This document shows, piece by piece, positions 2,975-30,573 of a stretch of 64,000 bases of DNA; the stretch's first letter is position 1; every line of letters starts with the position of its first letter. A model generated the notes under the pieces. The model saw nothing but the letters and a program-made list of their open reading frames with translations, did not search any database and was not told the DNA's origin. A program made the translations under genes and the position numbers. This DNA comes from an uncultured virus (IMG/VR IMGVR_UViG_3300043037_000115) (lineage: Duplodnaviria > Heunggongvirae > Uroviricota > Caudoviricetes): the IMG/VR virus record IMGVR_UViG_3300043037_000115. The stretch is one strand, 5' to 3'.

Positions 2975-2985
2975 TTGAATGGTAA
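2975..2985 (+). other. Hybrid att junction (left inversion breakpoint)
   Basis: TTGA-ATGG (island att arm) joined to TAAcccATG (phage stop codon plus terS start). Confidence 0.8.
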
Positions 2986-2988
2986 CCC

Positions 2989-3519
2989 ATGGCCCACGCG
3001 GAAGAAACGCGCCGTGCGGTGCGTAGCGCCTATATTTATGACCAGCTGCCGTTAGAGCGTGCGGCAGTTGCGGGCGGGGTGCCTGCTTCCACAGCCGCCC
3101 GCTGGAAGCGTAAAGCCAAGGCCGAAGGCGACGACTGGGACAAGGCCCGCCTTGCCTGTGCCCTCATGTCCGGCGCTACCGGCGGTGTGGAAAGTGTCAC
3201 CCGCCAGATGCTTGCCGACTATCTGGTGCAGCACAAAGCATTAATAGATCAATTACGTGATGATACGGACAGTGAGCTAAGCGCCGCACAAAAGGCGGAT
3301 ATACTGGCCAGCCTTGCCGACAGCTTTAACAAAACCGTATCCGCCTGCCGCAAGGTTATGCCTGAAACAAATGAACTGGCCATCGCTTTGGAAGTACTGG
3401 CCCTGCTGGGAGAGTTTGTACGCGAACACTTCCCGGAAAGGGGCGAGGCTCTGGTGGCTGTGCTGGAACCGTTCGGGCATGTACTCTCGCAACACTATGG
3501 CAGCAAAGGAAATAAGTAG
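2989..3519 (+). CDS. Mu gp27-like small terminase (DUF1804-like)
   Basis: N-terminal HTH, GDDWDKAR motif, position before terL. Confidence 0.8.
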   Translation: MAHAEETRRAVRSAYIYDQLPLERAAVAGGVPASTAARWKRKAKAEGDDWDKARLACALMSGATGGVESVTRQMLADYLVQHKALIDQLRDDTDSELSAAQKADILASLADSFNKTVSACRKVMPETNELAIALEVLALLGEFVREHFPERGEALVAVLEPFGHVLSQHYGSKGNK

Positions 3520-3527
3520 AGGTTGCC

Positions 3528-5192
3528 ATGGGACGCTTGAAGGAAAAGCTGAGCCGTAAAGATTTTCTGCAGGCATTAGCAGATCTGTCTGCCACACTGC
3601 GTCAGCAGATAGAGGCGGATTGTCAGGGTTTTGCCGCGGACCCCGAAGCCAGCAGGCAGCGCCGCGAACGCGCCAAAGGCGATTTTGTTTTTTTCAGGCG
3701 CACGTATTTTCCTCATTACGTGCGCACTTCTTCTGACGGCGGCGATTCGTTGCTGCACCAGTGGCTGGATACGGAGCTGCCCGCCATTATTGAGGCTGTA
3801 ACCGGCATCAAACTGGCAGTTGCCGCACCGCGTGGCGAGGCGAAAAGCACCTATGTGGCGCTGTTTTTTGTACTGTGGTGCGTTGTTACCCAGCGTAAGC
3901 ACTATATTTTGTTGATAGCTGACGCGCTGACGCAGGCCGCCGCCCTGCTGGAAGCTGTCAAGGTTGAGCTGGAAGCGAATCCGCGGCTAGCCATGGACTT
4001 TGCAGAGGCCTGCGGGCGCGGCCGTGTGTGGAACGAAGCGACCACAGTAACCGCCGGTAATATCAAACTGCAGGCTCTGGGCGCCGGCAAGCGTATGCGC
4101 GGGCTGCGTCATGGCCCGTACCGGCCTGATCTGGCCATTCTGGACGATCTGGAAAACGACGAGAACGTACAGAAACCCGAGCAACGCGACAAGCTGCAGG
4201 GCTGGCTGCAGCGTACTGTCTTATCGCTGGGACCAGCCGACGACAGCATGGATGTTATCTATGTGGGTACCATCCTGCACTATGACAGCGTGCTTGCCCG
4301 CACCATGAAAAAGCCCATGTGGCGGTCCAAAGCCTTTCGCGCCATCGTCACCTGGCCTGAACGCATGGACTTGTGGGACAAGTGGGAAAACCTGCTGCAG
4401 GCGGAAGGTCAGGAGTCCGCCGACCGTTTTTACAACGAGAACACACAGGCCATGCAGCGCGGTGCGGTGGTGTCGTGGCCGGCCATGCGTCCGCTGTACA
4501 AGCTGATGCTCAAACGGGCAGAAGACCATAGCGCCTTTGATGCCGAACAGCAGAACGATCCGCTTTCTTCCGACAGCGCCCCTTTTGCCGCCTGTATTGC
4601 CTTCTGGGTGGACAGGCGCAGCGACTGGCTGCTGTTCGGCGCGGTGGACCCATCACTGGGCAAGCATGGTGCCGGCCGTGACCCATCGGCCATTCTGGTA
4701 GGCGGATTCAACCGTGCCAGCATGACGCTGGATGTGGTGGAAGCCCTTATCCGCAAGCGGCATCCCGACAGGATAATCGAAGACATTATTGCCATTCATC
4801 TGCAGTACCGCTGCCTGATGTGGGCGGTAGAGGCTGTGCAGTTTCAGGAATTTTTTGCGCATGTCCTGACCCAGCGCGCAGCGGAAAGGGGGATTCCCCT
4901 GCCTGTCCGGCCCATCACCAACAGTACCGACAAACTGCTGCGCATTGAAACGCTGCAGCCCTATATGGCTCAGGGGCGCATCAGAGTGCATTCCAGCCAG
5001 AATACGCTGATTGACCAGTTACGGCACTTTCCCAAAGCAGATCACGATGACGGCCCGGATGCCCTTGAAATGCTCTGGCGTCTGGCATCGGGCGGTTTTG
5101 TAAGCTTGAGGGACGCTTTTGAAGCCGTTCCGCAGGCGAATGCCTTCAGGGGAATGTCTGACATCGAGGAGGATTCCCGTGGTTTCTTTTAA
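3528..5192 (+). CDS. Terminase large subunit
   Basis: APRGEAKST Walker A, ILDDLE Walker B, C-terminal HDDGPDA nuclease motif. Confidence 0.93.
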   Translation: MGRLKEKLSRKDFLQALADLSATLRQQIEADCQGFAADPEASRQRRERAKGDFVFFRRTYFPHYVRTSSDGGDSLLHQWLDTELPAIIEAVTGIKLAVAAPRGEAKSTYVALFFVLWCVVTQRKHYILLIADALTQAAALLEAVKVELEANPRLAMDFAEACGRGRVWNEATTVTAGNIKLQALGAGKRMRGLRHGPYRPDLAILDDLENDENVQKPEQRDKLQGWLQRTVLSLGPADDSMDVIYVGTILHYDSVLARTMKKPMWRSKAFRAIVTWPERMDLWDKWENLLQAEGQESADRFYNENTQAMQRGAVVSWPAMRPLYKLMLKRAEDHSAFDAEQQNDPLSSDSAPFAACIAFWVDRRSDWLLFGAVDPSLGKHGAGRDPSAILVGGFNRASMTLDVVEALIRKRHPDRIIEDIIAIHLQYRCLMWAVEAVQFQEFFAHVLTQRAAERGIPLPVRPITNSTDKLLRIETLQPYMAQGRIRVHSSQNTLIDQLRHFPKADHDDGPDALEMLWRLASGGFVSLRDAFEAVPQANAFRGMSDIEEDSRGFF

Positions 5193-6780
5193 TGACCTTA
5201 TGCAAGCTGCACGCGGCTTTGTGCGTTCGGCACTGGCCAAGGGGCTGCAGCAGACCGATGGATACTCCGCCGTCGGCACGCTGGAAGTGCTGAACAAATG
5301 GGCCAACCTGACACACGGGCTGACGCCTGCACGCCTGCGCACCATACTGCAGTCGGCCGATGAAGGTGAAATACTGGAGCAGCACAAACTGTTTGCCGAT
5401 ATGGAAGACCGTTGCGACCATCTGGCGGCAGAGTTGTCCAAGCGCAAGCGCGCTCTCCTGACGCTGGACTGGGACATTCAGCCGGGGCGTGCAGGAGATG
5501 CCAAGGCGGAACGGGTAGCGGAAGCGGTTAAAGAACAGTTTGAAGCCCTCAGCAATGTGGAAGACCTGATGCTGGATATGGCTGACGCCATAGGCCACGG
5601 CTTTGCCGCGCTTGAAATCGAATGGGGCCGCGAAGGATCGCTGCACCTGCCGCAGGCTTTTCATTTCCGCCCGCAGACGTGGTTTCAGACGCACCCGAAT
5701 AATTTGAACAGCCTCCGGCTGCGTGATGGCACATCAGAAGGCGCAGAGCTTCTCCCCTTCGGCTGGGTGCTGCATGTGCACCGTTCACGTTCCGGCTGGC
5801 TGCCCCGTGCCGGTCTGTTCCGTGTACTGGCGTGGAGCTTTCTGCTGCGTGAATATGCACTGTCCGCCCATGCCGCATATGTTGACGTGCATGGCCTGCC
5901 GTTCCGCCTGGGCAAATACCCCCCCGGCAGCAGCAAGGAAGATAAAGCCGCTTTGCGTCGGGCGCTGCAGTATCTGGGGCGCGATGCTTCCGGCATTATT
6001 CCTCAGGGGATGGAAATCCTGTTTGAAACGCCGGCCAACAGCAGCCATGATCATTTCGGGGCGCTGGCAGACCGCTGCGAACGCGGCATGAGCAAAGCCA
6101 TTCTGGGGGGCACGCTGACCAGTCAGGCCGACGGAAAAACCAGCACCAATGCCCTGGGCAACGTGCATAACGAAATCAGGCATGACCTGCTGATCTCCGA
6201 TGCGCTGCAGCTGGCCGGTACGTTGACGCGTCAGGTGCTGGCGCCGCTGGCCATCCTCAACAGCGGTGTAAACGACCCGCGTCTGCTGCCGTGGTTCCGC
6301 TTTGATACGCGTGAGGCAGAAGACTTGACCCAGTATGCCGATGCGCTGCCGAAGCTCGCTGCGGTCATGCGCATTCCGGCGTCATGGGTGCATGAAAAAC
6401 TTAAAATTCCTGTGGCCGGCAAGGATGAAGACATTCTTATGCCTGTTGCGCCTGCAGCCAGCCCCGCAGTGCCTGCAGCTCTGGCAGCGTTGTCTGCTGT
6501 TGCAGCACCGGCAGGTGGTGATGCCTACCCCGACCAGACTGCGGTGGACGCTGTTCCCGTGCCGGATAAAGAGCTGCATAAGGCTATGGAAGCCATGCTG
6601 GCCCCCTTGATGGATGAGGTGCGGCAGGGAGCTGACCCCGCTGATCTGCTCGGAAGACTGGGGGAACTGTATCCGCAGATGGACGGCGGGCAGCTGGAAG
6701 ACTTGCTGGCGCGGGCCTTGTTTGTGGCCGAAGTGTGGGGCAGCCTCAGTGCCTCTGACGAACAGCGTCCGGACTCATAG
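5179..6780 (+). CDS. Portal protein (Mu gp29/DUF935-like)
   Basis: SKAILGGTLTS...ALGNVHNEIR motif; GTG start with GGAGG RBS. Confidence 0.9.
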   Translation: MVSFNDLMQAARGFVRSALAKGLQQTDGYSAVGTLEVLNKWANLTHGLTPARLRTILQSADEGEILEQHKLFADMEDRCDHLAAELSKRKRALLTLDWDIQPGRAGDAKAERVAEAVKEQFEALSNVEDLMLDMADAIGHGFAALEIEWGREGSLHLPQAFHFRPQTWFQTHPNNLNSLRLRDGTSEGAELLPFGWVLHVHRSRSGWLPRAGLFRVLAWSFLLREYALSAHAAYVDVHGLPFRLGKYPPGSSKEDKAALRRALQYLGRDASGIIPQGMEILFETPANSSHDHFGALADRCERGMSKAILGGTLTSQADGKTSTNALGNVHNEIRHDLLISDALQLAGTLTRQVLAPLAILNSGVNDPRLLPWFRFDTREAEDLTQYADALPKLAAVMRIPASWVHEKLKIPVAGKDEDILMPVAPAASPAVPAALAALSAVAAPAGGDAYPDQTAVDAVPVPDKELHKAMEAMLAPLMDEVRQGADPADLLGRLGELYPQMDGGQLEDLLARALFVAEVWGSLSASDEQRPDS

Positions 6781-6781
6781 T

Positions 6782-8056
6782 ATGCCGCAGCCTGTGAACC
6801 TTTCTTATGCCATCGGCCTGCCGCCCGCCGATGCCATCGCCTACTTTGAATCAAAGGGCTATGCCGTAACTGCCAACTGGCATGAGATGTGGCAGCAGGC
6901 CCATGCCCGTGCGTTTACCGTGGCCGGTGTGGCAAAGCTGGATGTGCTGGAAGATATACGCAATGCCCTTGCGGTAAAATTGCGCGAAGGCAAAAGCGAG
7001 CGCTGGTTCATGCAGCAGCTGGAACCCGTATTGCGCAAAAAAGGCTGGTGGGGCAAACGGCTGGAACAAGGCGCGGACGGTACCCCGCGTGTCGTGCGCA
7101 TGGGCAGTCCGGCACGGCTGCGGCTTATCTTTCGTCAGAATGTACAGACAGCATACATGGCCGGCCGGTACAGACAGCAGCGGCAAAATGCTGCTGCCCG
7201 CCCGTACTGGCAGTATGTGGCGGTGCTGGATGCGAAAACGCGCCCGGCGCACAGCGCCCTGCACGGCAGAGTGTTTGCCCATGATGATGCCTTTTGGGGC
7301 AGCCATTACCCGCCTAACGGCTGGGGGTGCCGTTGCCGCGTGCGGACGTTGTCCGGCCATCGCCTGCAGCGCGAGGGCCTGCAGGTGGAAAGCAGCGCGG
7401 GCCGTATGGTCACCAGACAGCAGCAGGTCACAGACTCCCGCACCGGCGAGGTACATAACCGCGAAGTCACAGGATACCGCCTGCCCGGCACGGCAACCCG
7501 CAAAGGCGGCGAAGAAGCTGTTGCCTGGACAGACTTAGGCTTTTCGTACAACGCCGGTGCCGCCGGTATGGAACATATGCTGGCACAGGCAGTGCAAAAG
7601 CTTGAAGCCGCCAGCCACCCTGCAGCAGCCGCCACAGTGCGCCACCTGACAGCCGGACCGGCTTTTGCGCAATGGCAGGCCGCGCCGCAGGGCAGTTTTC
7701 CTGTTGCAAAGCTGGCACCGCACCACGCGGAACAGCTGGATACGGGCGCCACGGTTGCACGGCTTTCATCTGAGACATATGCAAAACAGCGTAGTCAGCA
7801 TCCGGAACTGCAGCAGGCCGATTACGCCCGCATACAGGATGTGGTGGAGCGGGGAGAAGTTGTCCGGCAAAATCCGCAGAAACTGCTGTTCTTTATGGAT
7901 GACCCGCAAGGGTATGTAACAGTGGTCAAAGCCACCCGCAAAAAAGACGAGCTGTATGTGGTCAGCTTCTGGCGGCTGAGCGCCGATGACGCAGGCAGGC
8001 AGCGCATTATCCGGCAGCTGCGGGCAAAGGATAAGGGCGGGAAAGAAGGCAGGTAA
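6782..8056 (+). CDS. MuF head morphogenesis protein with C-terminal PBECR-like nuclease extension
   Basis: TRPAH...PPNGWGCRC MuF motif; C-terminal KQ..HPEL..DY..VVSFWR segment resembles PBECR2 (RelE-like fold). Confidence 0.85.
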   Translation: MPQPVNLSYAIGLPPADAIAYFESKGYAVTANWHEMWQQAHARAFTVAGVAKLDVLEDIRNALAVKLREGKSERWFMQQLEPVLRKKGWWGKRLEQGADGTPRVVRMGSPARLRLIFRQNVQTAYMAGRYRQQRQNAAARPYWQYVAVLDAKTRPAHSALHGRVFAHDDAFWGSHYPPNGWGCRCRVRTLSGHRLQREGLQVESSAGRMVTRQQQVTDSRTGEVHNREVTGYRLPGTATRKGGEEAVAWTDLGFSYNAGAAGMEHMLAQAVQKLEAASHPAAAATVRHLTAGPAFAQWQAAPQGSFPVAKLAPHHAEQLDTGATVARLSSETYAKQRSQHPELQQADYARIQDVVERGEVVRQNPQKLLFFMDDPQGYVTVVKATRKKDELYVVSFWRLSADDAGRQRIIRQLRAKDKGGKEGR

Positions 8057-8062
8057 AAAAGG

Positions 8063-8170
8063 GAGCGGACGGTGGGGCCTGCCACCCGCAAACGCGGAAA
8101 CCCCACAAAGCGCTCCGGACAAAAAAGCCCGTGCTACGGCAGGCAGAATATCACCGTGTCACATCCGCTC
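8063..8170 (+). ncRNA. Candidate structured, pseudoknotted RNA after MuF
   Basis: Helices 8063-69/8164-70, 8069-74/8152-57, 8072-77/8101-06, 8077-83/8138-44, 8109-13/8131-35. Confidence 0.5.
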
Positions 8171-8192
8171 ATCTGTATAGGGGAGAATAGCC

Positions 8193-8684
8193 ATGATTGA
8201 AATCACGGTCAATCTGGACGCGTTAGAAAAGCAGCTCGCCAGACTGGCAGACCTGGGCCGCGACATGAGTCCCGTTACCATGCAGCTGGCCGGCATTCTG
8301 GCAGACGCCTCGGAACGGGCCTTTGCAGAAGAACGCGACCCCGTCAGCGGCGAAGCATGGCATCCGCTTTCGCCGGTCACCATAGGCCAACGCGCAAAAA
8401 CAGGACATGAAGACAGCCCCATCCTGCAGGTGCGGGGCCTGCTGGCAGCCAGCATCCAGACAGCGTACGGCCCGGACTTCGCCGTGGCAGGCACCAACGA
8501 ACCCCACGCCCGTACGCACCAGTTCGGCGCTCTGCGCGGTGCCCATGGCCGCACCGGGCGCGGCGGTCCTATACCATGGGGCACAGTTGTGCCCCGCCCG
8601 TTTCTGGGTATCGGGCCGGATGATGAAGAAGAAATTATGGGAGTGCTTCGTGACAATGTACGAAAAGCACTTGGCGGCGATTAG
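8193..8684 (+). CDS. Virion morphogenesis protein (Mu gpG-like)
   Basis: GTN...HQFG and PRPFLG motifs. Confidence 0.88.
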   Translation: MIEITVNLDALEKQLARLADLGRDMSPVTMQLAGILADASERAFAEERDPVSGEAWHPLSPVTIGQRAKTGHEDSPILQVRGLLAASIQTAYGPDFAVAGTNEPHARTHQFGALRGAHGRTGRGGPIPWGTVVPRPFLGIGPDDEEEIMGVLRDNVRKALGGD

Positions 8685-8804
8685 AGCGAAGATATTGCCG
8701 CTTGCGGACATCGGTCTGCAAACAGGCGGCTTCGCAAAATCTAACGCAGGGCTAACGCCCTTTGCCAAGGGATTATCCAGCGACAAAGAAAGTACTCCTA
8801 CCTT

Positions 8805-8856
8805 CTGAACCCCTTCCACCTGTCCTGACCATCCGTGCCCCCGTATATCGGGGGCA
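8805..8856 (+). promoter_or_regulatory. Late promoter (activator box plus palindromic -10) for the protease/capsid operon
   Basis: CTGAACCCCTTCCACCTGTCCTG also at 21474 and 30317(-); TATATC inside TGCCCCCG/CGGGGGCA. Confidence 0.75.
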
Positions 8857-10088
8857 TGACGCATTTATCCACCAGACATACCGCATACCCTGCCGCCAGT
8901 CTTGCGGTGCCGCTGTCACAAGGCGGTGCCGGGCACTCTGATCTGCCGGAAATGCTATCGCAAAAAGAGCTGCCGGCGGGCTGCAACATCCAGTTGTTTC
9001 CGGAAGGCCGCTTTGCCGCGCGTGACGGCCGCCCTGCCACCATTACAGAAGGCAGGCTCACCCACTGGCAGATGGATGCCTCCATTGCCGAAGCCATCAT
9101 CGCAGCCGCAGAGGCCCGCGAAACACCCATTGTCATAGATTACGAGCATCAGTCTCTGAACGCCCGTGCCAACGGGCAGCCCGCGCCCGCTTCCGGCTGG
9201 CTGCAGCGGCTTGTCTATGTGGCCGGCAAAGGTCTGTTCGCCTCCGTCAGCTGGACGGATAAGGCGCGCGGCTACATTGATGCCGGCGAATACAAATACA
9301 TATCCCCGTACTTTTCTTTTGATCCCGAAACCGGCGCCGTGCTGGCGCTGATCAACGCGGCCCTGACCAACACCCCCGCGCTGGACGGCTTAGACGCCGT
9401 GGCGCTGGCGCTGGGCAATGTGCACGCGGCCTCTGCGCACGTACAGGCCGCACAGACAACAGAACAGGAGACAACCATGGATGAACTACTGGAACGCCTG
9501 CGCTGGATGCTCAACTTGCCGGTAACGGCAACAGCAGCCGACATCACGGCGCAGCTGGACAAGCTCAAAGACATGCTGGGGGCAAGCGATGCGGCAGCAG
9601 CGTCGGACCAGCCCGGGGGCACCCCCGTAAGCCTGCTGGACGTGTTGCAGCACAAAGACAGCCAGATTGCGGCGCTGACGCAGCAGGCCGCAACCCCTGA
9701 CCCTGCCAGGTTTGCACCCGTAGCGGCCCTCACCGCATTGCAGCAGGCCAACGCGGCATTGAAAAACCGTGTTGCCGAGCTTGAAACCAGCAGCATTGAG
9801 AACGCGCTGAATGCGGAAATCGACGCCGCGCTCAGCGACGGAAGGCTGAACAAGGCTGTGGAGGGCTGGGCACGCGGCCTGGCCAAGGATGCCCCCGACA
9901 CACTGCGTACCTTCCTGAGCAGCGCCGTGCCTGTGGCGGCCCTTGGGGCCATGCAGACCGGCGGCGTACCGCCCGCCGGTACGCAGGACTCCAGCGCGGC
10001 CCTGACGGCAGAAGAAGATTACGTCATCAACCAGCTCGGGATTACGCCCGAGGAATACCACGCCGCAAAAAGCGGTAAAGGAAACTAG
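8856..10088 (+). CDS. Mu gpI-like prohead protease/scaffold
   Basis: IDYEHQ, YKYISP, AALTNTPAL motifs. Confidence 0.9.
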   Translation: MTHLSTRHTAYPAASLAVPLSQGGAGHSDLPEMLSQKELPAGCNIQLFPEGRFAARDGRPATITEGRLTHWQMDASIAEAIIAAAEARETPIVIDYEHQSLNARANGQPAPASGWLQRLVYVAGKGLFASVSWTDKARGYIDAGEYKYISPYFSFDPETGAVLALINAALTNTPALDGLDAVALALGNVHAASAHVQAAQTTEQETTMDELLERLRWMLNLPVTATAADITAQLDKLKDMLGASDAAAASDQPGGTPVSLLDVLQHKDSQIAALTQQAATPDPARFAPVAALTALQQANAALKNRVAELETSSIENALNAEIDAALSDGRLNKAVEGWARGLAKDAPDTLRTFLSSAVPVAALGAMQTGGVPPAGTQDSSAALTAEEDYVINQLGITPEEYHAAKSGKGN

Positions 10089-10090
10089 CC

Positions 10091-11020
10091 ATGGCCATTG
10101 TCACAAATGCTTTGCTTGCCAACCTGCGTACCGGCTTTGTCGCGGCCTACCAGCGCGGCCTGTCCAGAGCGCAGCCCATGTGGTCGCAGGTCGCAACGCG
10201 TATCCCCAGCAGCAACGCGCAAAACACCTACGGCTGGCTGGGGCAGTTTCCCAAGCTGCGTGAATGGGTGGGCGACCGTGTTTTCCGCAACATGAAGGAA
10301 GAAGGCTACGCCATTGTCAACAAGCTGTTTGAAGGCACTGTGGGCGTAACCCGCACCGCCATTGAGGACGACCAGCTGGGCATCTATACCCCGCTGTTTG
10401 AAGAGATGGGCTACGGGGCGGCCACGCATCCCGACGAGCTGGTTTTCGGCCTGCTGAAAAACGGTCACACAACCAACTGCTTTGACGGGCAGTCCTTCTT
10501 TGACACCGACCACCCCGTCTATGCCGAAGTGGACGGCACCGGTGCCGTTTCTCTGGTCAGCAACAATCTGGTGCCCGCAGCGGATGCCGGACCCGCCTGG
10601 TTCCTGCTCGATGTATCCCGCCCGCTCAAGCCGCTGATCTTTCAGGAACGTACCAAGCCCGAGCTGCAGGTCATTACCAACGCCGACAATGAACATGTCT
10701 TTATCAAAGACGAAATTCCTTACGGCGTGCGGTATCGCTGCAATGCCGGTTTCGGGTTCTGGCAGATGGCCGTACGCAGCCAGCATGCGCTTAACGCCGA
10801 CAGCTTTGAGCAGGCTCTGCAAGCTCTGCAGACCATGAAGGCGGACGGCGGGCGGCCTCTGGGCCTCGGCACCGGCGGCAAAAACACATTGCTGCTGGTC
10901 GTACCGTCCACCCTGAACGGCGCGGCCCGCAAAGTCATAGGCGTTTCCGAGCTGCCCGGCGGCGGCACCAACCCCTGGTACGATGCCGCAACCATCCATT
11001 CCGTCCCGTGGCTGCTGTAG
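10091..11020 (+). CDS. Major capsid protein (Mu gpT-like)
   Basis: YGWLGQFPKLREWVGDR and CFDGQSFFDTDHP motifs. Confidence 0.93.
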   Translation: MAIVTNALLANLRTGFVAAYQRGLSRAQPMWSQVATRIPSSNAQNTYGWLGQFPKLREWVGDRVFRNMKEEGYAIVNKLFEGTVGVTRTAIEDDQLGIYTPLFEEMGYGAATHPDELVFGLLKNGHTTNCFDGQSFFDTDHPVYAEVDGTGAVSLVSNNLVPAADAGPAWFLLDVSRPLKPLIFQERTKPELQVITNADNEHVFIKDEIPYGVRYRCNAGFGFWQMAVRSQHALNADSFEQALQALQTMKADGGRPLGLGTGGKNTLLLVVPSTLNGAARKVIGVSELPGGGTNPWYDAATIHSVPWLL

Positions 11021-11028
11021 GAGGACAC

Positions 11029-11726: not shown

Positions 11727-11742
11727 CGCTACAGGAGCAACC

Positions 11743-12351: not shown

Positions 12352-12354
12352 ACC

Positions 12355-13972: not shown

Positions 13973-13986
13973 GCGATAATTCCTCG

Positions 13987-14010: not shown

Positions 14011-14057
14011 GATTTGAATACAGGATAGCGTATACAGGTGTTCATAAGGGAGGATGT

Positions 14058-17687: not shown

Positions 17688-17696
17688 GAGGCGGTT

Positions 17697-20172: not shown

Positions 20173-20792
20173 TGCGACAGGTTCAGCAGGCAGTGGCGCG
20201 GGCGCTTTCCACCATACGCCTTGCCTTCAGGGCGCGGCTTACCGGCTTGGACACCGCCCCGCGTGTTCAGCTGGTGCAGGCCGATGCGCTGGCGGGTGAA
20301 CGCCTGCAGGCGGCAGAGCTGTTTCAGCATTTCGGGTTTACCAGCGCTCCGCCGGAAGGCACCCAGCTGATTGTCCTGCCTCTGGGCGGTCGTACCGCCC
20401 ACAGCGTTATTGTGGCCACAGAACACGGCAACTACCGCATGGACGTTGCACAGGGCGAGGCCTGCATCTACAACCAGTGGGGGGCGCGCATCCATCTGAA
20501 GAAAGACCGTATAATAGAAGCCGACTGCGACCACTTCCGCATCAATGCGGCCCAAAGCATCACCATGCAGACAAAGTCATGGCAGGCCACGGCGACTGAG
20601 GGCGCAACCTTTGCCAGCCCCACGCTGGCCTTCGGCGGCATGGACGGTGAACAGGCGCAGGCCAGCATAAATGCCCACATAAACACAACCGGCGACATAA
20701 CCTCGCAGGGAGATCATGTCGCCGGTGGCATAAGCCAGAGGCATCACCGCCATCAGGGGGATTCCGGCGGGACTAGTGGGGAGCCTGAGTAG
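20166..20792 (+). CDS. Baseplate spike (Mu gp45-like)
   Basis: FQHFGFTSAPP and C-terminal HxH iron-binding motif. Confidence 0.88.
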   Translation: MVMRQVQQAVARALSTIRLAFRARLTGLDTAPRVQLVQADALAGERLQAAELFQHFGFTSAPPEGTQLIVLPLGGRTAHSVIVATEHGNYRMDVAQGEACIYNQWGARIHLKKDRIIEADCDHFRINAAQSITMQTKSWQATATEGATFASPTLAFGGMDGEQAQASINAHINTTGDITSQGDHVAGGISQRHHRHQGDSGGTSGEPE

Positions 20793-20793
20793 C

Positions 20794-21462
20794 TTATAAT
20801 TTTTTTAAAGTGTTAGCCTTTGTTTTATTGACGAGAGATATTTCAATTGCACTCTCGACAATATCCAGAGCAATTATGACTTGCTTTTCATTTGGCTGAC
20901 TTTTTCTGTGAACAACATCGTTTCCAAATTTTGTAACATCAATAAGATAATTCGCCTGATCTTGTGTAAAAATATTTTTTTTTATACTATTTTTGATGTT
21001 TTCTTGAAAATTCTTTTTATCTTCTTTGTTCACGTGAACCATAAACTGTTCAGTGAAAGTCCTTAATCCCATAATTACAATTGAATAAAGCCCATTGTTT
21101 AGTCCTGAGTATATTTCATTGTATAATGTGCCTGATGATTCAGACCATAGTACTTCTTCAATACAACTTTTAGGTTTAAATTTGTTTTTTGGATAAATAG
21201 CTACATCAATTTTATTTTCTTCATGATATTCTTTTTCAGAAAAGTAAGATTCTATTGCAAAAAATATGTATCCACATCCATTACATTCAACGATGTAGTA
21301 TTTGTCCCATCCATCAACCCCACACCTGTATTCATACTCTTCATAGTTATCATAACTATGCTCGACAGCGCCAAGCACTTTACAGTGACGATATCCATCA
21401 CATCTTGTACAATAAATTTTTTTGTCATCTACATTTTCAATTATTTCTGTTTTGGATGTCAC
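20794..21462 (-). CDS. Moron: Zn-ribbon plus DUF4145/HEPN-like protein
   Basis: Very AT-rich, antisense to tail genes; two CxxC pairs; GNDVVH motif. Confidence 0.7.
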   Translation of the reverse strand: MTSKTEIIENVDDKKIYCTRCDGYRHCKVLGAVEHSYDNYEEYEYRCGVDGWDKYYIVECNGCGYIFFAIESYFSEKEYHEENKIDVAIYPKNKFKPKSCIEEVLWSESSGTLYNEIYSGLNNGLYSIVIMGLRTFTEQFMVHVNKEDKKNFQENIKNSIKKNIFTQDQANYLIDVTKFGNDVVHRKSQPNEKQVIIALDIVESAIEISLVNKTKANTLKKL

Positions 21463-21473
21463 TGGTACTCCTC

Positions 21474-21524
21474 CTGAACCCCTTCCACCTGTCCTGTATC
21501 TCAGCCGCCACTACAGTGGCGGCA
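21474..21524 (+). promoter_or_regulatory. Late promoter for baseplate/fibre genes
   Basis: Identical 23-bp box; TACAGT inside GCCGCCAC/GTGGCGGC; ATG 7 nt after the -10. Confidence 0.75.
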
Positions 21525-21880
21525 TGGGAAACGATGCAGGGTTAAATCCATATACAGGCGACTACACCGGAGAGCGCATCAGCCATCTGGGCAACGCCAT
21601 CTATCTGCGCATCATGACGCCTCTGGGCACATGGTGGGCAGACCCCACGGTAGGTTCGCGCCTGCACGAAATAGCGCGCGAAAAAGACCTGCCCCGCATC
21701 CGTACCCTTGCACAGCAATATGCCCAGCAGGCATTGGCCCCGTTGGTTGAGGCAGGCAGAGCGCAGTCCATACAGGTGACGGCCATGCAGCCGCATAACG
21801 GTGTATGCCTGTTGATTATCTGTGCCACTGATTCAACCGGTAATCAACAGACTTTCCAATACCCTGTTCGTGTTATCTGA
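21524..21880 (+). CDS. Baseplate wedge protein (Mu gp46-like)
   Basis: WWADPTVGSRLH and YAQQALAPL motifs. Confidence 0.85.
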   Translation: MGNDAGLNPYTGDYTGERISHLGNAIYLRIMTPLGTWWADPTVGSRLHEIAREKDLPRIRTLAQQYAQQALAPLVEAGRAQSIQVTAMQPHNGVCLLIICATDSTGNQQTFQYPVRVI

Positions 21881-21899
21881 ACAGATTACAGGATTCGCC

Positions 21900-22961
21900 A
21901 TGCCGTATATCACGCCAGACTTCGCCGCTATCCGTCAGGGTATTCTGCGCGATACGCAAAACCTGCAACCCGATGCCGCGACGTTGCCCGACAGCGACAA
22001 CTACGTGCGGGCCAGTGCCACGGCATCGGCCATCGAAGGGTTGTACCAGCACCAGCTGTGGATTGCCCGCCAGATTCTGCCGGACACGGCGGATACCGAA
22101 TACCTTGAAATTCATTGCGGCCTGCGCGGCATCACCCGCAAACCGGCTACCAGAGCCACAGGCACCCTGACGCTGCACGGTGCACCGCAGACACCCGCAG
22201 CGGCAGGCATCCGTGCCGCACACCCCGCATCAGGAGAACAATTTGCCACCACGGCGGCGGCTGTGCTGGATGAAACCGGCACCGCGGCCGTGCCCTGCCG
22301 GGCCGTAACGGCCAAGGCCCTGCCGGATTACACGGCAGAGCCGGTAACGCTGGTCAATGCGCCATCCGGCATACTTTCCGGCGCACAGCTGTCCCTTGCC
22401 GGCGGCACCGATGCCGAAAGCGACGCCCAGCTGCTGGAGCGTCTGCTGCTGCATATGCGTACTCCGCCGGGCGGCGGCAACCGCTACGATTATCAGCGCT
22501 GGGCGCTGGAGGTGCCCGGCGTTACCGCGGCTTTTGTGTATCCCCTGCGCCGCGGCCTCGGCACAGTGGACGTGGCGGTGCTGTCCGCCGACGGTTTGCC
22601 CGCTGCAGAGCTGGTAACGGCGGTTCAGGCGCATATTGATGCACAGCGCCCTGTTACGGCCGCCGGCGTCACCGTGCTGGCCCCGCAGCCGCTGATGATA
22701 GACGTGCACGCCGCCGTGCGGCTGCAGGGCACCACCCTGCCCGTGGTAACGGCGCAGCTTCAGCAGTCGCTTGCCGTATTTTTCGCCGCACTGCTGCCGG
22801 GCGACCTTGTGGTGCGTTCCCATCTGGAGGCGCTCATATCCGGCATGGCAGGCGTGCAGGACAGACAGCTGATAACCCCCGCCGCTAACGTGCAGGCCGT
22901 GGTGGATGCCACCCGCCTGCAATGGCCCAGACCGGGGCAGGTGACGCTGGAGGCCATGTAA
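21900..22961 (+). CDS. Baseplate J-like protein (Mu gp47)
   Basis: GGTDAESD, GGNRYDYQRWA, RRGLGTVDV motifs. Confidence 0.9.
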   Translation: MPYITPDFAAIRQGILRDTQNLQPDAATLPDSDNYVRASATASAIEGLYQHQLWIARQILPDTADTEYLEIHCGLRGITRKPATRATGTLTLHGAPQTPAAAGIRAAHPASGEQFATTAAAVLDETGTAAVPCRAVTAKALPDYTAEPVTLVNAPSGILSGAQLSLAGGTDAESDAQLLERLLLHMRTPPGGGNRYDYQRWALEVPGVTAAFVYPLRRGLGTVDVAVLSADGLPAAELVTAVQAHIDAQRPVTAAGVTVLAPQPLMIDVHAAVRLQGTTLPVVTAQLQQSLAVFFAALLPGDLVVRSHLEALISGMAGVQDRQLITPAANVQAVVDATRLQWPRPGQVTLEAM

Positions 22962-23543
22962 ATGGGCCATATCCGGTTGTTGCAACACCTGCTGCCCCCC
23001 ACCAGCTACAGCGCGGAAGCCCCGCGCCTGCGGGCGCAGCTGCACGCAGAAGGCAACGCCCTTGATGCCGCGCTGGCCGCTTCTGTACGTGCCGTCATGG
23101 GCATAGACCCGTTCCGCGCACAGGAATGGCTGCCGGACTGGGAGCGTGTTTACGGCCTGCCCGATGCCTGTTCCCATCCTGATACCACGCTGCAGGAACG
23201 CATCATGGCATTGGCCATAGCCGTGCAGGAACAGGCCGGCCTGTCGCGGGCATGGTTTACGCGCCTTGCCATGCTGCTTGGCTACAGAGTGGTGGTGCAC
23301 GAATACCCGCCGTTCTGCGCCGGTTCACATGCGGGGGACATGCTGACCAACGGCGACTGGCAATGGGCATGGGGGGTAGCCGCACCTGCCATTACCGAAC
23401 GCCGCTTCAGCGCCGGACGCAGCGCCGCGGGCGAAACCCTGTCCTCATGGGGCGATCATCTGCTGGAATGTGTCTTCCGCAGGCTGAAACCGGCCCATAC
23501 CGAAGTCCTTTTTTCATACGGAGGAACCAATGCACCGGATTGA
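22962..23543 (+). CDS. Mu gp48-like (DUF2313/YmfQ)
   Basis: LPDWERVYGLPD and LECVFRRLKPAHT motifs. Confidence 0.88.
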   Translation: MGHIRLLQHLLPPTSYSAEAPRLRAQLHAEGNALDAALAASVRAVMGIDPFRAQEWLPDWERVYGLPDACSHPDTTLQERIMALAIAVQEQAGLSRAWFTRLAMLLGYRVVVHEYPPFCAGSHAGDMLTNGDWQWAWGVAAPAITERRFSAGRSAAGETLSSWGDHLLECVFRRLKPAHTEVLFSYGGTNAPD

Positions 23544-24957
23544 TTCACAAGGTGCCACCGCGGAGGGGCGCTTTACCGAAGGTAACCCCACCATACCGGA
23601 ACCTGCCACCGTGGTCAGCGCCGACTGGCTGAATGCCGTGCAGGATGAAATTCTGAATGTACTGGCAGAGGCGGGCATACAGCCGGAAAAAGCGGATAAC
23701 GCACAGCTGAAAGAAGCCATTCTCAAACTGGGACCGGAGCGTTTCAGGGGATTTTCCGCCGGAGGGCAGCATGCGTCATTTGAAGGTGACCTGAACACCA
23801 TCGCCCATAACAGTCTGTACGCCTGTGACCGGGCCAAAGTGCAGAATGCACCGGAGCTGCCTGCGGGTACGTGGGCTTTTGTGCATACCATGGTTCTGCC
23901 TGCCGATGCCGGACGCACACAGGTGTGCTGGCCTGCTGACGACCCTGACCACCCCGGCTGGAACCGCCGCCGTACCTCCACCGGCCAGTGGAGCGACTGG
24001 CGGGTGGTAGGCTCCGGCGAAGGCGGTATGCCCGTAGGCACGTTGCTGTTTTCCACCACCGGCACACCGCTGCCCGGCACCGTTCCTGTAAACGTAAAGC
24101 AGAAATTCGCATTGGAGGTGTACCCTCAGTTGACAGCATGGGTGCGCAGCTGCGGGGGCTATCTGGCCACAGAGGCGGAATGGGACGCAGAAGCCGCCGC
24201 ACAGGAAGGCTCCTGCGGCAAGTACTGCCTGACGGATACGCATATCATTCTGCCTTGCTACAGACACTACTTCTCGGCCGCGCAGAATGGTGCGGCAGGT
24301 AAAGCGGCAGGCGACTGGGCCGGTGATGCCATACGGAACATTACGGGTGAGCTGAAGTCCAGCACATCCCCCAATGCGCTGTTACCCAGCCTCAGAGACA
24401 CGGCAGGCGCCTCCGGCGCATTTCTGGTGCACCAAGAGGACCTTACGGGACGTGTGGAGAACATCGTCCAGAATGTATATGTAGGGGCTGACCGCGTCAT
24501 TTTCGACGCTTCCCGCGTAGTCCCCACAGCCGAAGAAAACCGCCCGAAAACCAGTTATCTGCTGCCCTGCATCAAAGCCTTTGATGTGGCTGTAAATACC
24601 GCACAGGTGGACATGCAGGCTCTTGCCGCACAGGTCAGCGCCATTAACGGCAACAAGGTTGACCGCAGCGAGTGGACGCAGAGTCTGGGCGAAAGCGGCT
24701 GGCAACGGCTGCCCAGCGGGCTGATTCTGCAGTGGGGCACCGGTTCTGTATCAACTGGAGTCGCCACAGAGGTAACGCTGCCGATCGCCTACCCGAACGC
24801 GCATCTTTCTTGCGTTGCTGTTATCGGCATTGACTACGGTTCTGTCGGCAACGACGCCATCGCTGTATACAACAGGATGGCAGGCAAGTTCACCCTGAAG
24901 GGAGAACACTCCGGTTCAACTGTAATGCCATATTCATACATTTCCATCGGCTACTAA
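23530..24957 (+). CDS. Tail fibre
   Basis: MHRID...FTEGNP...WLNAVQDE N-terminus; GWQRLPSGLILQWG C-terminal domain. Confidence 0.9.
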   Translation: MHRIDSQGATAEGRFTEGNPTIPEPATVVSADWLNAVQDEILNVLAEAGIQPEKADNAQLKEAILKLGPERFRGFSAGGQHASFEGDLNTIAHNSLYACDRAKVQNAPELPAGTWAFVHTMVLPADAGRTQVCWPADDPDHPGWNRRRTSTGQWSDWRVVGSGEGGMPVGTLLFSTTGTPLPGTVPVNVKQKFALEVYPQLTAWVRSCGGYLATEAEWDAEAAAQEGSCGKYCLTDTHIILPCYRHYFSAAQNGAAGKAAGDWAGDAIRNITGELKSSTSPNALLPSLRDTAGASGAFLVHQEDLTGRVENIVQNVYVGADRVIFDASRVVPTAEENRPKTSYLLPCIKAFDVAVNTAQVDMQALAAQVSAINGNKVDRSEWTQSLGESGWQRLPSGLILQWGTGSVSTGVATEVTLPIAYPNAHLSCVAVIGIDYGSVGNDAIAVYNRMAGKFTLKGEHSGSTVMPYSYISIGY

Positions 24958-25540
24958 GGAGGCCGCACAATGAAATACAGCCCTTCAACAAACGGCTTTT
25001 ATCACCCCGACATACACGGCAACAGCATCCCCGCCGATGCCGTGGCCGTCAGTCCCGAAGACCATGCCACACTGCTGGCCGCACAGGCGCGGGGGCAGAT
25101 AATCCGGCCCGATGAAAACGGCTGTCCCGTGGCCATAACACCCGCCGCACCGCCTGCGCCTACCCGCGCAGAACTGTACACGGCTAAACAGGCGGAAATC
25201 CGCGACGGGGCCGAAGCCATGCTGACCGCGCTGGCCGCGGAATACGCTCCGCTGGAACGCCAGACATGGGACCAGCAGGCGGCAGAGGCCGAAGCCCTGC
25301 AGGCGGATGCGGACGCACCGGCCCCGCTGGTGCGGGCCATTGCCGCCACGCGGGGCATGCCCGTGGGTGAGCTTGCCGCCCGTATCCTTGCCAACCGCAC
25401 CGCATGGGTTGCCGTATCCGGCCATGTGGTAGGCCAGCGCCTTGCCTATCAGGATGCGCTGGAAGCAACACAGGGGCTGGACGATGCGCAGGCGGCAGAT
25501 ACCATACAGGGCATCAACCCCGTCTACACGTTGCCGGAGG
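24025..25540 (+). repeat. Copy 1 of a ~1.5-kb inverted repeat (fibre tip plus chaperone), partner 42521-44036
   Basis: Position x maps to 68061-x with no indels seen; alternate-frame ORFs identical in both copies. Confidence 0.95.
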
Positions 25541-25548
25541 ATGCGTAG
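24970..25548 (+). CDS. Tail fibre assembly chaperone
   Basis: YSPSTNGFY N-terminus; follows the fibre gene. Confidence 0.8.
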   Translation: MKYSPSTNGFYHPDIHGNSIPADAVAVSPEDHATLLAAQARGQIIRPDENGCPVAITPAAPPAPTRAELYTAKQAEIRDGAEAMLTALAAEYAPLERQTWDQQAAEAEALQADADAPAPLVRAIAATRGMPVGELAARILANRTAWVAVSGHVVGQRLAYQDALEATQGLDDAQAADTIQGINPVYTLPEDA

Positions 25549-25782
25549 ATGACAGATATTCTTGATATGGCAGCCGAGGTGGAACGTTTGCAGCGCGAGG
25601 CCGCCATAGCCCGTGCCCGTTCCGGGACATTACGTTCCGCCGGCGGACCGCAGATCATTGACGGCATAGCCTGCTGCCGGGAATGCGGTGAACCTATTCC
25701 GGCGGCACGACTGGCCGCCGTGGCCGGTGTTTCTTTGTGTGTGGACTGCGCCGGCCGGCAGGAGCGACATGATGTTTACTGA
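25549..25782 (+). CDS. TraR/DksA C4 zinc-finger protein
   Basis: MTDILDMA...CRECGEPIPAARL..CVDC. Confidence 0.88.
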   Translation: MTDILDMAAEVERLQREAAIARARSGTLRSAGGPQIIDGIACCRECGEPIPAARLAAVAGVSLCVDCAGRQERHDVY

Positions 25783-26344
25783 TACAGCGGCACATACCAT
25801 GCTTGATGCGCTGGACATAGCGTATGCAGCTCTGCATGCGGCCTATCCGGGAGCCGACGGGGCAGATGCGGAGCTTTCCGGCGGAAACTATGCCCGCAGG
25901 CCCGTGGCACTGCAGGCAGCTTCCGCCCGCGCCCGCACTCTTTCAGCCCCCGTCACGTTTGAAGTTCCCTCCGGCGCCACAGTGGCCTGGTTGTCGTGGC
26001 GCAAGGCGGACGGAAGCTGCGTTGCGGTCACACCGCTGGGGGGCGAAGCGCCCAGAGCGGCCATCACCGACCCCGCAACAGATATCGTCACCTGTGAAAA
26101 CCACGGCTTCGCAGACGGATATACCGTGGTGTTCAGCGGAGAACCGCCTGCGGGGCTGCAGACAGGCGTTATCTATCATGTGCGCGATGTAGCGGGCGAC
26201 ACCTTCAGAGTGGCGGCAGCCGCTGGCGGCGCCGCCGTGGATATCACCGCAGACGGGGTGGCCCGTGTGACCCGCATCGTGCCGGAGATATACAACAACG
26301 CCGGTACCTACCAGCTTACCGGCGCGGTGCTGGCGCTGGAATAG
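25772..26344 (+). CDS. Putative virion fibre/structural protein
   Basis: ELSGGNYARRPV N-terminus and beta-rich YHVRD..DTFRVA..GGAAVDIT segment. Confidence 0.55.
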   Translation: MFTDTAAHTMLDALDIAYAALHAAYPGADGADAELSGGNYARRPVALQAASARARTLSAPVTFEVPSGATVAWLSWRKADGSCVAVTPLGGEAPRAAITDPATDIVTCENHGFADGYTVVFSGEPPAGLQTGVIYHVRDVAGDTFRVAAAAGGAAVDITADGVARVTRIVPEIYNNAGTYQLTGAVLALE

Positions 26345-26353
26345 GCTGCGGCG

Positions 26354-26551
26354 ATGAAACAATACCGTTGCCCGATCATAGGTGCAGAAACAACGGACCA
26401 GCGGCCTGCGGCGGCCGGCTGTGTGGCCTGGTGGTGGGTGGTACGCCTGCTGCCCGACGGTACCGCGCTGGTAGCCTGTCCGCAGGTCAGCCCGCAGCAG
26501 CACGCCGCGCTGCTGGCCGCCGGCTGTACAGAGGTCCCGACCGATGGCTGA
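26354..26551 (+). CDS. Small hypothetical protein
   Basis: Tightly packed in the operon; overlaps the next start. Confidence 0.5.
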   Translation: MKQYRCPIIGAETTDQRPAAAGCVAWWWVVRLLPDGTALVACPQVSPQQHAALLAAGCTEVPTDG

Positions 26552-27575
26552 TTTTTACACACCCTTCACAGGGGCGGCGGGCACCACGCTGGAAAGTCTG
26601 GGCTGGCATACGGTCATTGCCTACGGCGACTACAAGTACCGGCTGACAGGGGATGGCTATGCCTATGGCATGACCGTGGGCATGAGTCACTCCGACCGGC
26701 AGTACACCGATACCGAGCAGATCGTCACGGTTACGCGGCGTGACGATCTGACGGATAACACTCTGGTGTTGATGGCACGGCAGGACGCTCCGGACAACAA
26801 ATACGCGTGTGTCCGCATTTACATAAAGGCCGGCGAGATCAAGCTGGTGCAGGATTATACGACATACGGGACGTTTACCCGCGACCTAGCCGTTGGAGAT
26901 TCAGAGACTCTGGCTGTCCGGGCAGAGGGTGAGCAGTTCACGGTGTACCGCAATGGAGAACCGGTCATCGGGCCGGTTACGCTGACAAAATACAGACAGG
27001 GCCATGCCTGTATGGGGACATGGTCAACGGCATGGGACAAACAGCAAAGCGGGATTCTGTTCGGCAGCTATTCCTTTGCCGACCTTTCGACCGGCGCAGG
27101 AGCCTCCGGCACCGCGGCCGGTATCGCCCGTCTTGTGTGTCTGGCATCCGGCCGGCGCGGCGCCCACGGCCTTACCGGCGGCGCGCGTGTGCCATACCAG
27201 CAGACAACAGCCTGTAAAAACGGCACAGCGGCATCGCATGTCGCCGCCTGCGGAACAGATCCGGCCAGCGGCAATAAAATGGCGCTGTCAGGCTGTACCG
27301 GCCATATCCGCCACACGCCCACAGCACAGACAACAGGCACAAAACAGACCGCCGCCCTTGCCGTTAACAGCGGCGCAGTCCGCATTACTGCCCGGGCGCA
27401 CAAAAAGCTGGCAGGAACATCCTCGGCCCTGTGTCTTGCCCGCCTGCTGGCGTATGCCGGCCATGCCAAGATGCCCGTGCCGCCCCGGCAGCGCATTTAC
27501 ACCGCCCGCCCGCTGCACAGGCTGCATACAGCATCCACCATTCAAAGGCAGATCATCCTGCCGGCAACGAGGTGA
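26544..27575 (+). CDS. Putative auxiliary fibre (lectin-like N-terminus, Ala/Gly/Thr-rich C-terminus)
   Basis: Beta-rich VRAEGEQFTVYRNG segment; operon context. Confidence 0.5.
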   Translation: MADFYTPFTGAAGTTLESLGWHTVIAYGDYKYRLTGDGYAYGMTVGMSHSDRQYTDTEQIVTVTRRDDLTDNTLVLMARQDAPDNKYACVRIYIKAGEIKLVQDYTTYGTFTRDLAVGDSETLAVRAEGEQFTVYRNGEPVIGPVTLTKYRQGHACMGTWSTAWDKQQSGILFGSYSFADLSTGAGASGTAAGIARLVCLASGRRGAHGLTGGARVPYQQTTACKNGTAASHVAACGTDPASGNKMALSGCTGHIRHTPTAQTTGTKQTAALAVNSGAVRITARAHKKLAGTSSALCLARLLAYAGHAKMPVPPRQRIYTARPLHRLHTASTIQRQIILPATR

Positions 27576-27577
27576 TT

Positions 27578-27847
27578 ATGTACCCGTCCTGGCCGCCCAA
27601 GCTGGCAACTGAAAAACTGGATTACGCAGTGGATATGTCCGCAAGACTGGCCCCCGGAGAAAACATCTCCGAAGTCATATGGTCAGCGCCGGTTGCCCTG
27701 AAAGTCGAGCAGCAAACAATCTCCGGCCCGCTGCTCACCGCGCTGATCTCCGGCGGCTCCCCGGGGCACCATCATCCGGTGACAATTACCGCCCGGACAA
27801 CCGCCGGCAGAATCCTCGCAGAAAGAATCCTGCTGCCTGTCAGATAG
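27578..27847 (+). CDS. Putative fibre adaptor/base protein
   Basis: K..TEKLDYAVD..LAPGE.I motif; GAGG RBS. Confidence 0.55.
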   Translation: MYPSWPPKLATEKLDYAVDMSARLAPGENISEVIWSAPVALKVEQQTISGPLLTALISGGSPGHHHPVTITARTTAGRILAERILLPVR

Positions 27848-27858
27848 CCCGACAAACC

Positions 27859-27911
27859 TATGCCGAATCCATCCCCACGAAGTGCCAAATCCCGCGCCGC
27901 CTTACATTCCC
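27859..27911 (+). repeat. Prophage 1 right end (...TTACA at 27906) with TGCC(A/G)AAT sites and target duplication TTCCC
   Basis: Reverse complement is TGTAAG-N10-ATTTGGCAC, the same layout as the left end; flank TTCCC is the reverse complement of GGGAA at 40061. Confidence 0.85.
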
Positions 27912-27969
27912 AACGGAATCTCGCAAATCCTGGCTAACCGGAAATGTTATCCAAACGGTTATCCACACG

Positions 27970-28003
27970 AAAAAAGGCTTACAAGTCAAAACTTGTAAGC
28001 CTT
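27970..28003 (-). terminator. Intrinsic terminator downstream of the tRNA fragment
   Basis: AAGGCTTACAAGT/ACTTGTAAGCCTT stem followed by a T6 tract on the - strand. Confidence 0.85.
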
Positions 28004-28263
28004 AGAAATTCTTGGTGGAGCTGGAGGGAATTGAACCCACGACCTCTTGAATGCCATCCAAGTGTTGCTTTAATGTAGGCGATACTGGAAGCCACAAGGG
28101 CGCCGGTAATACCGCCGGCAACACCTCCTGCCACTGCCCCGGCACTGGCCGCACGCCTGTCCATGCCATCCATACGCTTATCCAGTGCATCAAGTTTGGC
28201 GTCCATACGCTCCAGCAGCATCAGCTCCTGTGTTCGTGCTTCCGTAGGCTTCTCATCGTGCAT
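27979..28263 (-). CDS. Pre-terminase membrane protein, reading through into the att (native stop displaced)
   Basis: 70 aa ending IKATLGW, then 24 aa encoded by the tRNA fragment and terminator. Confidence 0.7.
   Translation of the reverse strand: MHDEKPTEARTQELMLLERMDAKLDALDKRMDGMDRRAASAGAVAGGVAGGITGALVASSIAYIKATLGWHSRGRGFNSLQLHQEFLRLTSFDL
28013..28057 (-). pseudogene. 3' half of tRNA-Ala(GGC) = att site fragment (right inversion breakpoint)
   Basis: ATGGCATTCAAGAGGTCGTGGGTTCAATTCCCTCCAGCTCCACCA: anticodon loop, T-arm and CCA present; D-arm and 5' end absent. Confidence 0.85.
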
Positions 28264-30564: not shown

Positions 30565-30573
30565 AGCATTCTC

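Follow-up and report, generated by a model that had tools for sequence, protein, structure and literature searches.

The stretch of DNA analysed here, 64,000 nucleotides of the uncultured Caudoviricetes virus record IMGVR_UViG_3300043037_000115 (the window, to whose whole length all coordinates refer), carries near its left end the integrase-bearing end of an island and, directly next to it, a Mu-like transposable prophage whose two blocks lie on opposite strands with non-phage DNA and a piece of a tRNA gene between them. The two junctions examined are J1 on the left and J2 on the right, the latter read on the minus strand. The nearest genome, G001, was compared through its contigs C1, C4 and C5; G002, which was returned as the nearest virus record, proved to be this same record in reverse and was not counted as independent. 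The locus contains the following features.

1..125, strand not given: end of a multi-copy repeat, probably an insertion sequence (word depth in run X1)
401..1639, minus: island open reading frame (ORF) of 412 aa, G+C 0.39-0.44
1643..2806, minus: island tyrosine integrase, 387 aa from the ATG at 2806 (PF00589, phrog_1)
2840..2863, plus: tandem repeat, two copies of TGTGCCAGTTTTG, between the integrase start and the attachment (att) core
2975..2982, plus: island-side half of the att core (TTGA + ATGG), J1; crossover in 2979-2982
2983..27906, plus: late region (packaging, head, tail) of the Mu-like prophage, to its right end ...CCTTACA (Pfam, match to G001)
2989..3519, plus: DUF1804 gene, first after J1, called terS in the earlier note on this DNA (PF08822 at 5.7e-60)
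8801..8830 (plus), 21468-21496 (plus) and 30292-30321 (minus): three copies of a 30-nt repeat, 97% identical or complementary
27907..27911, plus: target-site duplication at the right phage end, TTCCC, the reverse complement of GGGAA (shared flanks in G001 C1 205606-205610)
27907..28012, minus: chromosomal flank downstream of the tRNA fragment, with a terminator hairpin (100% identical to G001 C1 205497-205610)
27979..28263, minus: final gene of the lysis-side module, phrog_1103, natively 69 aa, stop codon lost
28013..28057, minus: displaced 45-nt 3' part of tRNA-Ala(GGC), from its anticodon loop through CCA, J2; crossover in 28054-28057
28054..40060, minus: early, regulatory and lysis region of the Mu-like prophage, to its left end ...CCCCACA (Pfam, PHROGs, match to G001)
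40061..40065, plus: target-site duplication at the left phage end, GGGAA (shared flanks in G001 C1)

Reading of the window bore out the two junction sequences given in the earlier note. At J1, ...gccaTTGA ATGG|TAA ccc ATG, the TTGA (2975-2978), which lies 169 bp from the integrase ATG at 2806, and the ATGG (2979-2982) run into TAA (2983-2985) and then into the DUF1804 start at 2989. At J2, ...aacaCTTGG ATGG|CAT TCAAG agg...ctccacca, the ATGG occupies 28057-28054 and the CAT 28053-28051, and the A of the CCA is at 28013. The minus strand of 28013-28057 is identical to the final 45 nt of the tRNA-Ala(GGC) genes of G001, whose anticodon arm reads CTTGA-ATGGCAT-TCAAG; ARAGORN found no whole tRNA within the window. 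Together, J1 and J2 hold both parental sites with their arms swapped, with no base lost or gained and with the crossover confined to the shared ATGG, where four contiguous bases, and seven of eight overall, are identical. A search for inverted repeats found nothing longer than the 8-nt core at the junctions, which rules out homologous recombination.

Pfam and PHROG searches gave the gene content that the earlier note had described. The plus-strand genes at 2989-27847 encode DUF1804, the large terminase, Portal_Mu, Mu F, I, T, gp36, gp37 and sheath proteins, followed by the tape measure, a DNA circularisation protein, baseplate components and fibres, and so make up a complete late region of the Mu type. 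The minus-strand genes of 28054-40060 encode a Ner-like helix-turn-helix (HTH) protein, the transposase A (a Mu-type DDE enzyme with PF09299, PF02316 and rve in 35622-37853), the AAA+ protein B (AAA_22/TniB in 34818-35606), DUF3164, GemA, Mor, a holin, an SLT lysin, an Rz-like spanin, a lipoprotein-like gene product and the 69-aa phrog_1103 protein, and the repressor is encoded on the plus strand. The two blocks are separated by 106 bp of non-phage DNA with the terminator hairpin and then by the 45 nt of tRNA sequence on the minus strand.

Matches to G001 set the limits of the phage, with the C5 match ending at 27906 and the C4 match at 40060. The flanks 27907-28020 and 40061-40098 adjoin each other in C1, where they overlap by the 5 bp GGGAA and represent the empty site. 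In the window the duplication reads TTCCC at one phage end and GGGAA at the other, and one flank is reversed. An alignment of the phage ends showed that both read TGT...ATTTGGCAC on one strand, with ATTTGGCAC at an equal offset. The marks of a Mu-type insertion, a 5-bp target duplication and TG...CA ends, are thus present, but the ends are not inverted with respect to each other and the late region is reversed relative to the collinear early-lysis-head-tail order found in relatives; both departures are an effect of the inversion. The phage ends had first been placed by the GTTATCCACA repeats and by a 9-nt AATGCCATT at 39948, before the G001 matches put them at 27906 and 40060. The GTTATCC repeats were rejected as a phage end since they belong to the chromosomal flank, and AATGCCATT was rejected as a chance match internal to the phage.

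Both ancestral arrangements were found outside the window. On the phage side, window 28380-28054 (reversed) runs directly into 2975-3395 in G001 C4 with an 8-nt overlap at 99-100% identity, and the aligned sequence, ...AAA GCA ACA CTT GGA TGG TAA CCC ATG..., translates as ...KATLGW-stop followed, after 3 bp, by the DUF1804 start. The IMG/VR record 2528311093_000006, which belongs to another data set, reads ...CACTTGGATGG TAA CCC ATG... like C4, and its identity to the window is likewise within 99-100%. The earlier note's proposal that swapping the arms at ATGG restores a collinear phage, with ...ATLGW-stop 3 bp before terS, is therefore seen directly in these two sequences, where the 28263 gene adjoins terS as that proposal requires of uninverted homologues, and the gene order of phage DMS3 agrees. 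A 24,644-nt contig from run X4, an oil metagenome, matches the window from 2975 onward and has 14,851 nt preceding this point; 2.37 kb before it, roughly at the expected place of the lysis promoter, this contig carries the late-promoter repeat in direct orientation. Run X4 holds 0.93 of the sampled window words, and no contig of it could be placed on 301-2700.

On the island side, the same arm swap was said to restore an anticodon-arm att core beside the integrase, and this form was found in all three metagenome contigs that carry the island arm and in runs X7 (wastewater) and X15 (sludge). The island arm in the three metagenome contigs continues as ATGG|CATTCAAGAGGTCGTGGGTTCAATTCCCTCCAGCTCCACCA with two different downstream flanks, the contigs of X7 and X15 continue with the ancestral arm CATTCAAGAGG... 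from exactly 2982, and the parental junction in all of them reads ATGG|CATTCAAGAGGTC.... The uninverted order on the island side is therefore integrase, 169 bp and TTGA-ATGGCAT-TCAAG...CCA. The occurrence of the same tRNA-fragment junction with differing flanks indicates that the island is a mobile one whose usual end is this tRNA fragment. Pattern scans for J1 and for the collinear phage returned nothing from the metagenome_contigs or genome_contigs sets, and the island arm was not found in the genome_contigs scan; near relatives may be left out of these sets, so that absence from them means little.

The window segment 2983-28053, about 25 kb and two thirds of the Mu-like prophage, is thus confirmed to be inverted relative to the ancestral order, and its exact breakpoints and both parental junctions have been recovered. 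The inversion is shown independently by the phage target duplication and the orientation of the phage ends, because the reversed flank, the reversed duplication and the phage ends that point the same way have only one simple route, a breakpoint inside the prophage after its insertion.

Analysis of the island integrase pointed to this enzyme as the probable agent. The integrase gene (1643-2806) is intact and full length, matching PF00589 at 4.4e-29 over profile positions 2-169 of 172 and phrog_1 at 3.3e-59. Homologues at E <= 1e-30 are present in 116 of the 201 genomes of the family of G001, the best of them 62% identical. The neighbourhoods of the 15 best homologue loci were compared. ARAGORN found no whole tRNA at any of these 15 loci, and every one carries the 3' part of a tRNA from the anticodon arm onward, divergent from the integrase and ~170-300 bp upstream of its start. 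The same GAATGGCATTCAA core of tRNA-Ala(GGC) occurs at eight of them, and the remaining seven carry parts of other tRNAs, with loop triplets GGG, CTT, CGT and TGG that were read by eye and not assigned by a tool. The two copies of TGTGCCAGTTTTG are the sole exact copies in the window, and similar tandem repeats lie between integrase and core at many homologue loci; they are likely to be arm-type integrase binding sites, as predicted from sequence. According to the account of the Islander survey in PMC4383910, about half of tRNA islands are centred on the anticodon.

The homologue layout places one break of the inversion within 4 nt of the att-core centre, that is, the anticodon loop, of the adjacent integrase. 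A break at the centre of an att core and a conservative, reciprocal exchange are hallmarks of site-specific recombination. The position of the break and the homologue layout therefore lend good support to the suggestion in the earlier note that the island integrase was the agent, and we infer from them that this enzyme probably catalysed the inversion.

Several observations weigh against this conclusion. Of 11 core positions the phage site shares just 8, a level reached or exceeded by 152 sites in the window when 175 are expected by chance; several that match the core more closely went unused, and the phage site and the core share only TTG-ATGG. The description of the phage site as a recognisable secondary attachment site (pseudo-att) was accordingly overstated. 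The 7-nt overlaps differ at two of seven positions (ATGGCAT and ATGGTAA), both within the last three, and overlap mismatches normally hamper tyrosine recombinases. The reacting island site is the junction of an integrated element (prophage-type) and not an attP, a repeat search of the window found no arm-type repeat near the phage site, and a 4-nt microhomology is also what illegitimate recombination is expected to leave. Alternatively, the enzyme may have been a related integrase encoded at another place in the genome and not that of the island. Integrases of the lambda type rarely tolerate such partners, and homology is needed mainly on the side of the first strand exchange, a need that the location of ATGG at the left of the overlap would fit.

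The alternative that best survives is illegitimate recombination independent of any integrase, through break repair or template switching at the 4-nt ATGG, with the coincidence with the att core due to chance. It would account for a crossover at which merely four contiguous bases (seven of eight) are identical and for a phage site whose match to the core is no better than chance. This explanation nevertheless appears unlikely, because a random break in a genome of ~3.6 Mb would very seldom fall within 4 nt of the anticodon loop that is the att centre for the clade of the adjacent integrase, and because the exchange was exactly reciprocal, with nothing lost or gained.

If the island integrase was the agent, the following sequence of events can be proposed. 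At the outset an island with a tyrosine integrase would have occupied a tRNA-Ala(GGC) gene, with the displaced 3' tRNA fragment and then the chromosomal flank adjoining the island end nearest the integrase. The Mu-like transposable phage would then have inserted ~100 bp downstream of the tRNA fragment, with duplication of the 5 bp GGGAA, its right end being the closer one to the tRNA. The island integrase would later have recombined the core of its own junction (TTGA-ATGGCAT-TCAAG) with a poorly matching site in the prophage, CTTGG-ATGGTAA-CCC, situated 25 kb away in inverted orientation to the island core. Strand exchange in the shared ATGG, or at its left border, would have resulted in the conservative, reciprocal inversion of 2983-28053. 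The inversion is most likely to have been a single, irreversible accident, a natural case of secondary-site inversion.

The inversion is expected to have had several consequences for the prophage. The phage ends are now in direct and no longer in inverted orientation, so that a Mu-type transpososome should be unable to pair them. The DUF1804-to-G block (2989-8684), which includes DUF1804, terminase, portal and F genes, appears to have been cut off from the putative late promoter at 30292-30321 upstream of the holin gene. The phrog_1103 gene has lost its stop codon and gained 25 additional codons read through the tRNA fragment. Unpaired ends, a severed late promoter and this gene tail would together ground the prophage. 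All of the remaining phage genes look intact, which suggests that the event was probably recent. A promoter search of 2600-3200 found no promoter-like site, and transcription of the terS block from the island is thus unsupported.

The assignment of 30292-30321 as a promoter is based on the positions of the three 30-nt repeats, each of which lies upstream of a block of late genes: I/protease (8801), gp46-baseplate (21468) and holin (30292). They are probably Mor-dependent late promoters, and the orientation of the copies follows the inversion.

The earlier note had also raised the possibility of a reversible cross-element switch by which the island controls the prophage. In such a switch the integrase would occasionally, perhaps upon induction, return the 25-kb segment to its former orientation and so silence or release the prophage. 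If true, the island would hold a neighbouring transposable phage silent, immobile and releasable by means of a switch whose two parts would be the att core and, at a phage stop codon, a cryptic site. The integrase is intact and each hybrid site in principle keeps one good half-core, but the contigs of run X1 showed no second orientation: the contig across J1 has no branch or loose end at 2982 and contains the inverted form only, although this is weak evidence, since contigs, the form in which all sequencing runs were examined, drop rare variants. Ancestral junctions occurred only in other samples and genomes, in which the two elements do not adjoin: the island is flanked by other DNA, and the phage of G001 has a different location. 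Furthermore, the junctions have no matched inverted repeats, Pfam identified no dedicated invertase among the window genes, and the hybrid overlaps are mismatched as much as the parental ones, so that reversal should be as rare as the forward event. A switch is therefore very improbable, and a one-time accident caused by the island integrase is retained as the preferred interpretation.

Least credible of all is that the junctions derive from a chimeric contig: although the window comes from a metagenome assembly in which related phages coexist, and the contig of a sibling record (IMG/VR 3300043120_000147) stops exactly at the phage end at window 27907, an independent assembler (Logan) bridged J1 with 0 mismatches at an even depth of 83.5 in a 14,554-nt contig over 98-9000 of run X1, the likely source, J2 is present in that same second IMG/VR record (L037) at 100% identity over 460 nt, the 8 nt common at the junctions are too short to mislead a k-mer assembler, and the reciprocal structure and reversed target duplication are as a real inversion predicts. 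The end of record 3300043120_000147 at 27907 suggests an assembly branch at which the phage end joins two or more flanks in this sample.

The closest known parallel comes from HK022 (Dorgai, Oberto and Weisberg 1993, J Bacteriol 175:693). By the accounts of it in PMC5495485 and PMC6379469, Int there promotes an inversion of the DNA between an att site and a secondary attachment site that lies within the prophage. In that case, and probably here too, a heterobivalent tyrosine integrase recombines an att site with a poorly matching, inverted site in a prophage, which inverts part of it and can ground it, and the window likewise has one break in the overlap of an att core, the other at an inverted non-att site and an exactly reciprocal exchange. 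The integrase and the secondary site of the HK022 case are described as belonging to the same phage, whereas here two elements would be involved, with the integrase coming from a separate island and the site from an unrelated transposable phage next door, in a natural event in an environmental population that is known from its sequence.

The island conforms to the class A attP of Islander as outlined there (Hudson, Lau and Williams 2015, PMC4383910), with a tyrosine integrase beside the att site and a displaced 3' tRNA fragment from the anticodon arm. Such a fragment was found at the island end in the restored junction, the three metagenome contigs, X7, X15 and all 15 homologue loci. Unlike in that class, the tRNA fragment in the window has been carried 25 kb from the integrase and reversed, and the other end of the island, where the regenerated tRNA would be expected, is outside the window. 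The pTN3 integrase of Thermococcus, which is described as catalysing chromosomal inversions (Cossu et al. 2017, PMC5495485), is likewise an enzyme of a mobile element that inverts host DNA at non-att sequences. By that description it uses pairs of similar sequences of ~100 bp or more and mimics homologous recombination, while only 4-8 nt are common here and one partner is a true att core. In the helper-embedded phage-inducible chromosomal islands (PICIs) described in PMC10111431, too, the integrase of one element acts within the late region of another prophage. The process outlined there is integration with regulatory logic at a specific, repeatedly used att site, in contrast to a single inversion at a site of chance-level match.

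Among transposable phages, those of the Casadabanvirus type (DMS3, D3112 group) are similar to the restored phage. The DUF1804 protein is 50% identical to that of DMS3, and the DMS3 order of GemA, late activator, endolysin, spanin, small gene, DUF1804 gene, terminase and portal, all on one strand, is the restored order; the DUF1804 gene of DMS3 starts 12,263 from the left end, compared with ~12.0 kb (12,013 bases) in the restored window phage, whose left end now lies 12.0 kb from J2. The window phage differs from this group in its contractile tail (sheath, baseplate J) and in being presently split and not collinear.

A search of the open-access literature found no case in which the integrase of one element inverted part of another prophage. 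What differs here from the known cases is that the probable enzyme and its victim come from different elements, that the victim is a transposable phage inserted by chance 100 bp from the displaced tRNA fragment of the island, that the event is natural and that both parental states are recoverable. If the island integrase is responsible, the locus provides a natural case, at base level, of one element's integrase disabling an unrelated neighbouring prophage by secondary-site inversion, and indicates that a prophage may be grounded without mutation in the phage itself and that off-target integrase activity can reshape tens of kilobases beside tRNA islands. As a caution for annotation, two oppositely oriented halves of a Mu-like prophage can belong to a single phage that was intact until recently. 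The pair of sites is also suited to gauging the mismatch tolerance of overlaps of anticodon-loop integrases.

The collinear relative in G001 C4 and in 2528311093_000006 is itself a deletion derivative, in which the counterpart of window 36249, within transposase A, is followed directly by that of 28380. Without an equivalent of window 28381-36248 it has lost B, Mor and the lysis genes and is a prophage defective by another route. At the locus of G001 C1 that matches the tRNA flank (L015, ~1385-1400), a 12-nt remnant, ttccctccacca, stands in place of the 45-nt fragment with no tRNA nearby, and it may be the scar of a different island or of a deletion.

The leftmost 3 kb of the window, which hold the island genes, are low in G+C (0.39-0.48). 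The 412-aa ORF at 401..1639 had no Pfam family above the cut-off and no PHROG match. Word depth over 1-125 in run X1 was 811-1398, compared with 83.5 elsewhere (10-17x), and this segment is probably the end of an insertion sequence that cuts the left part of the island in the window. The island copies in runs X7 and X15 are not interrupted by this repeat; their contigs cover 123-2982 and diverge before 123.

Further observations were made within the late region. A gene at 20794-21462 (minus), encoding a DUF4145 protein (phrog_1305, 'DNA binding protein'), has a G+C content of 0.45 compared with ~0.6 around it and lies on the opposite strand within the baseplate operon; it resembles a moron and is possibly a defence or exclusion gene. 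Another patch of low G+C (0.47) at 14000-14650 includes a 160-aa ORF (14058-14540) with no Pfam or PHROG match. Between the sheath gene and those of the tube region, 14622-14663 form a perfect 21-nt hairpin.

Another Mu-like prophage, different from the first, lies in 40096-64000 (minus), only ~35 bp past the left end of the first. Its sequence from ~40096 starts with TGTAAG, like the right end of the first phage, and matches contig ends in G001. Its genes encode Portal_Mu, Mu F with a PBECR2 nuclease domain, gp36, a Phage_cap_E capsid protein, DUF2586, a tape measure and Baseplate_J, and its tail fibre has the same Gp53-like_C tip as that of the first phage. The segment 40194-41923 (minus) has a short Formyl_trans_N match (196 aa, covering just the C-terminal part of the domain) and an ORF of 380 aa with weak matches to ABC and GNAT; these genes, located between the structural parts of both prophages, are perhaps cargo carried by the second phage or else fragments of genes.

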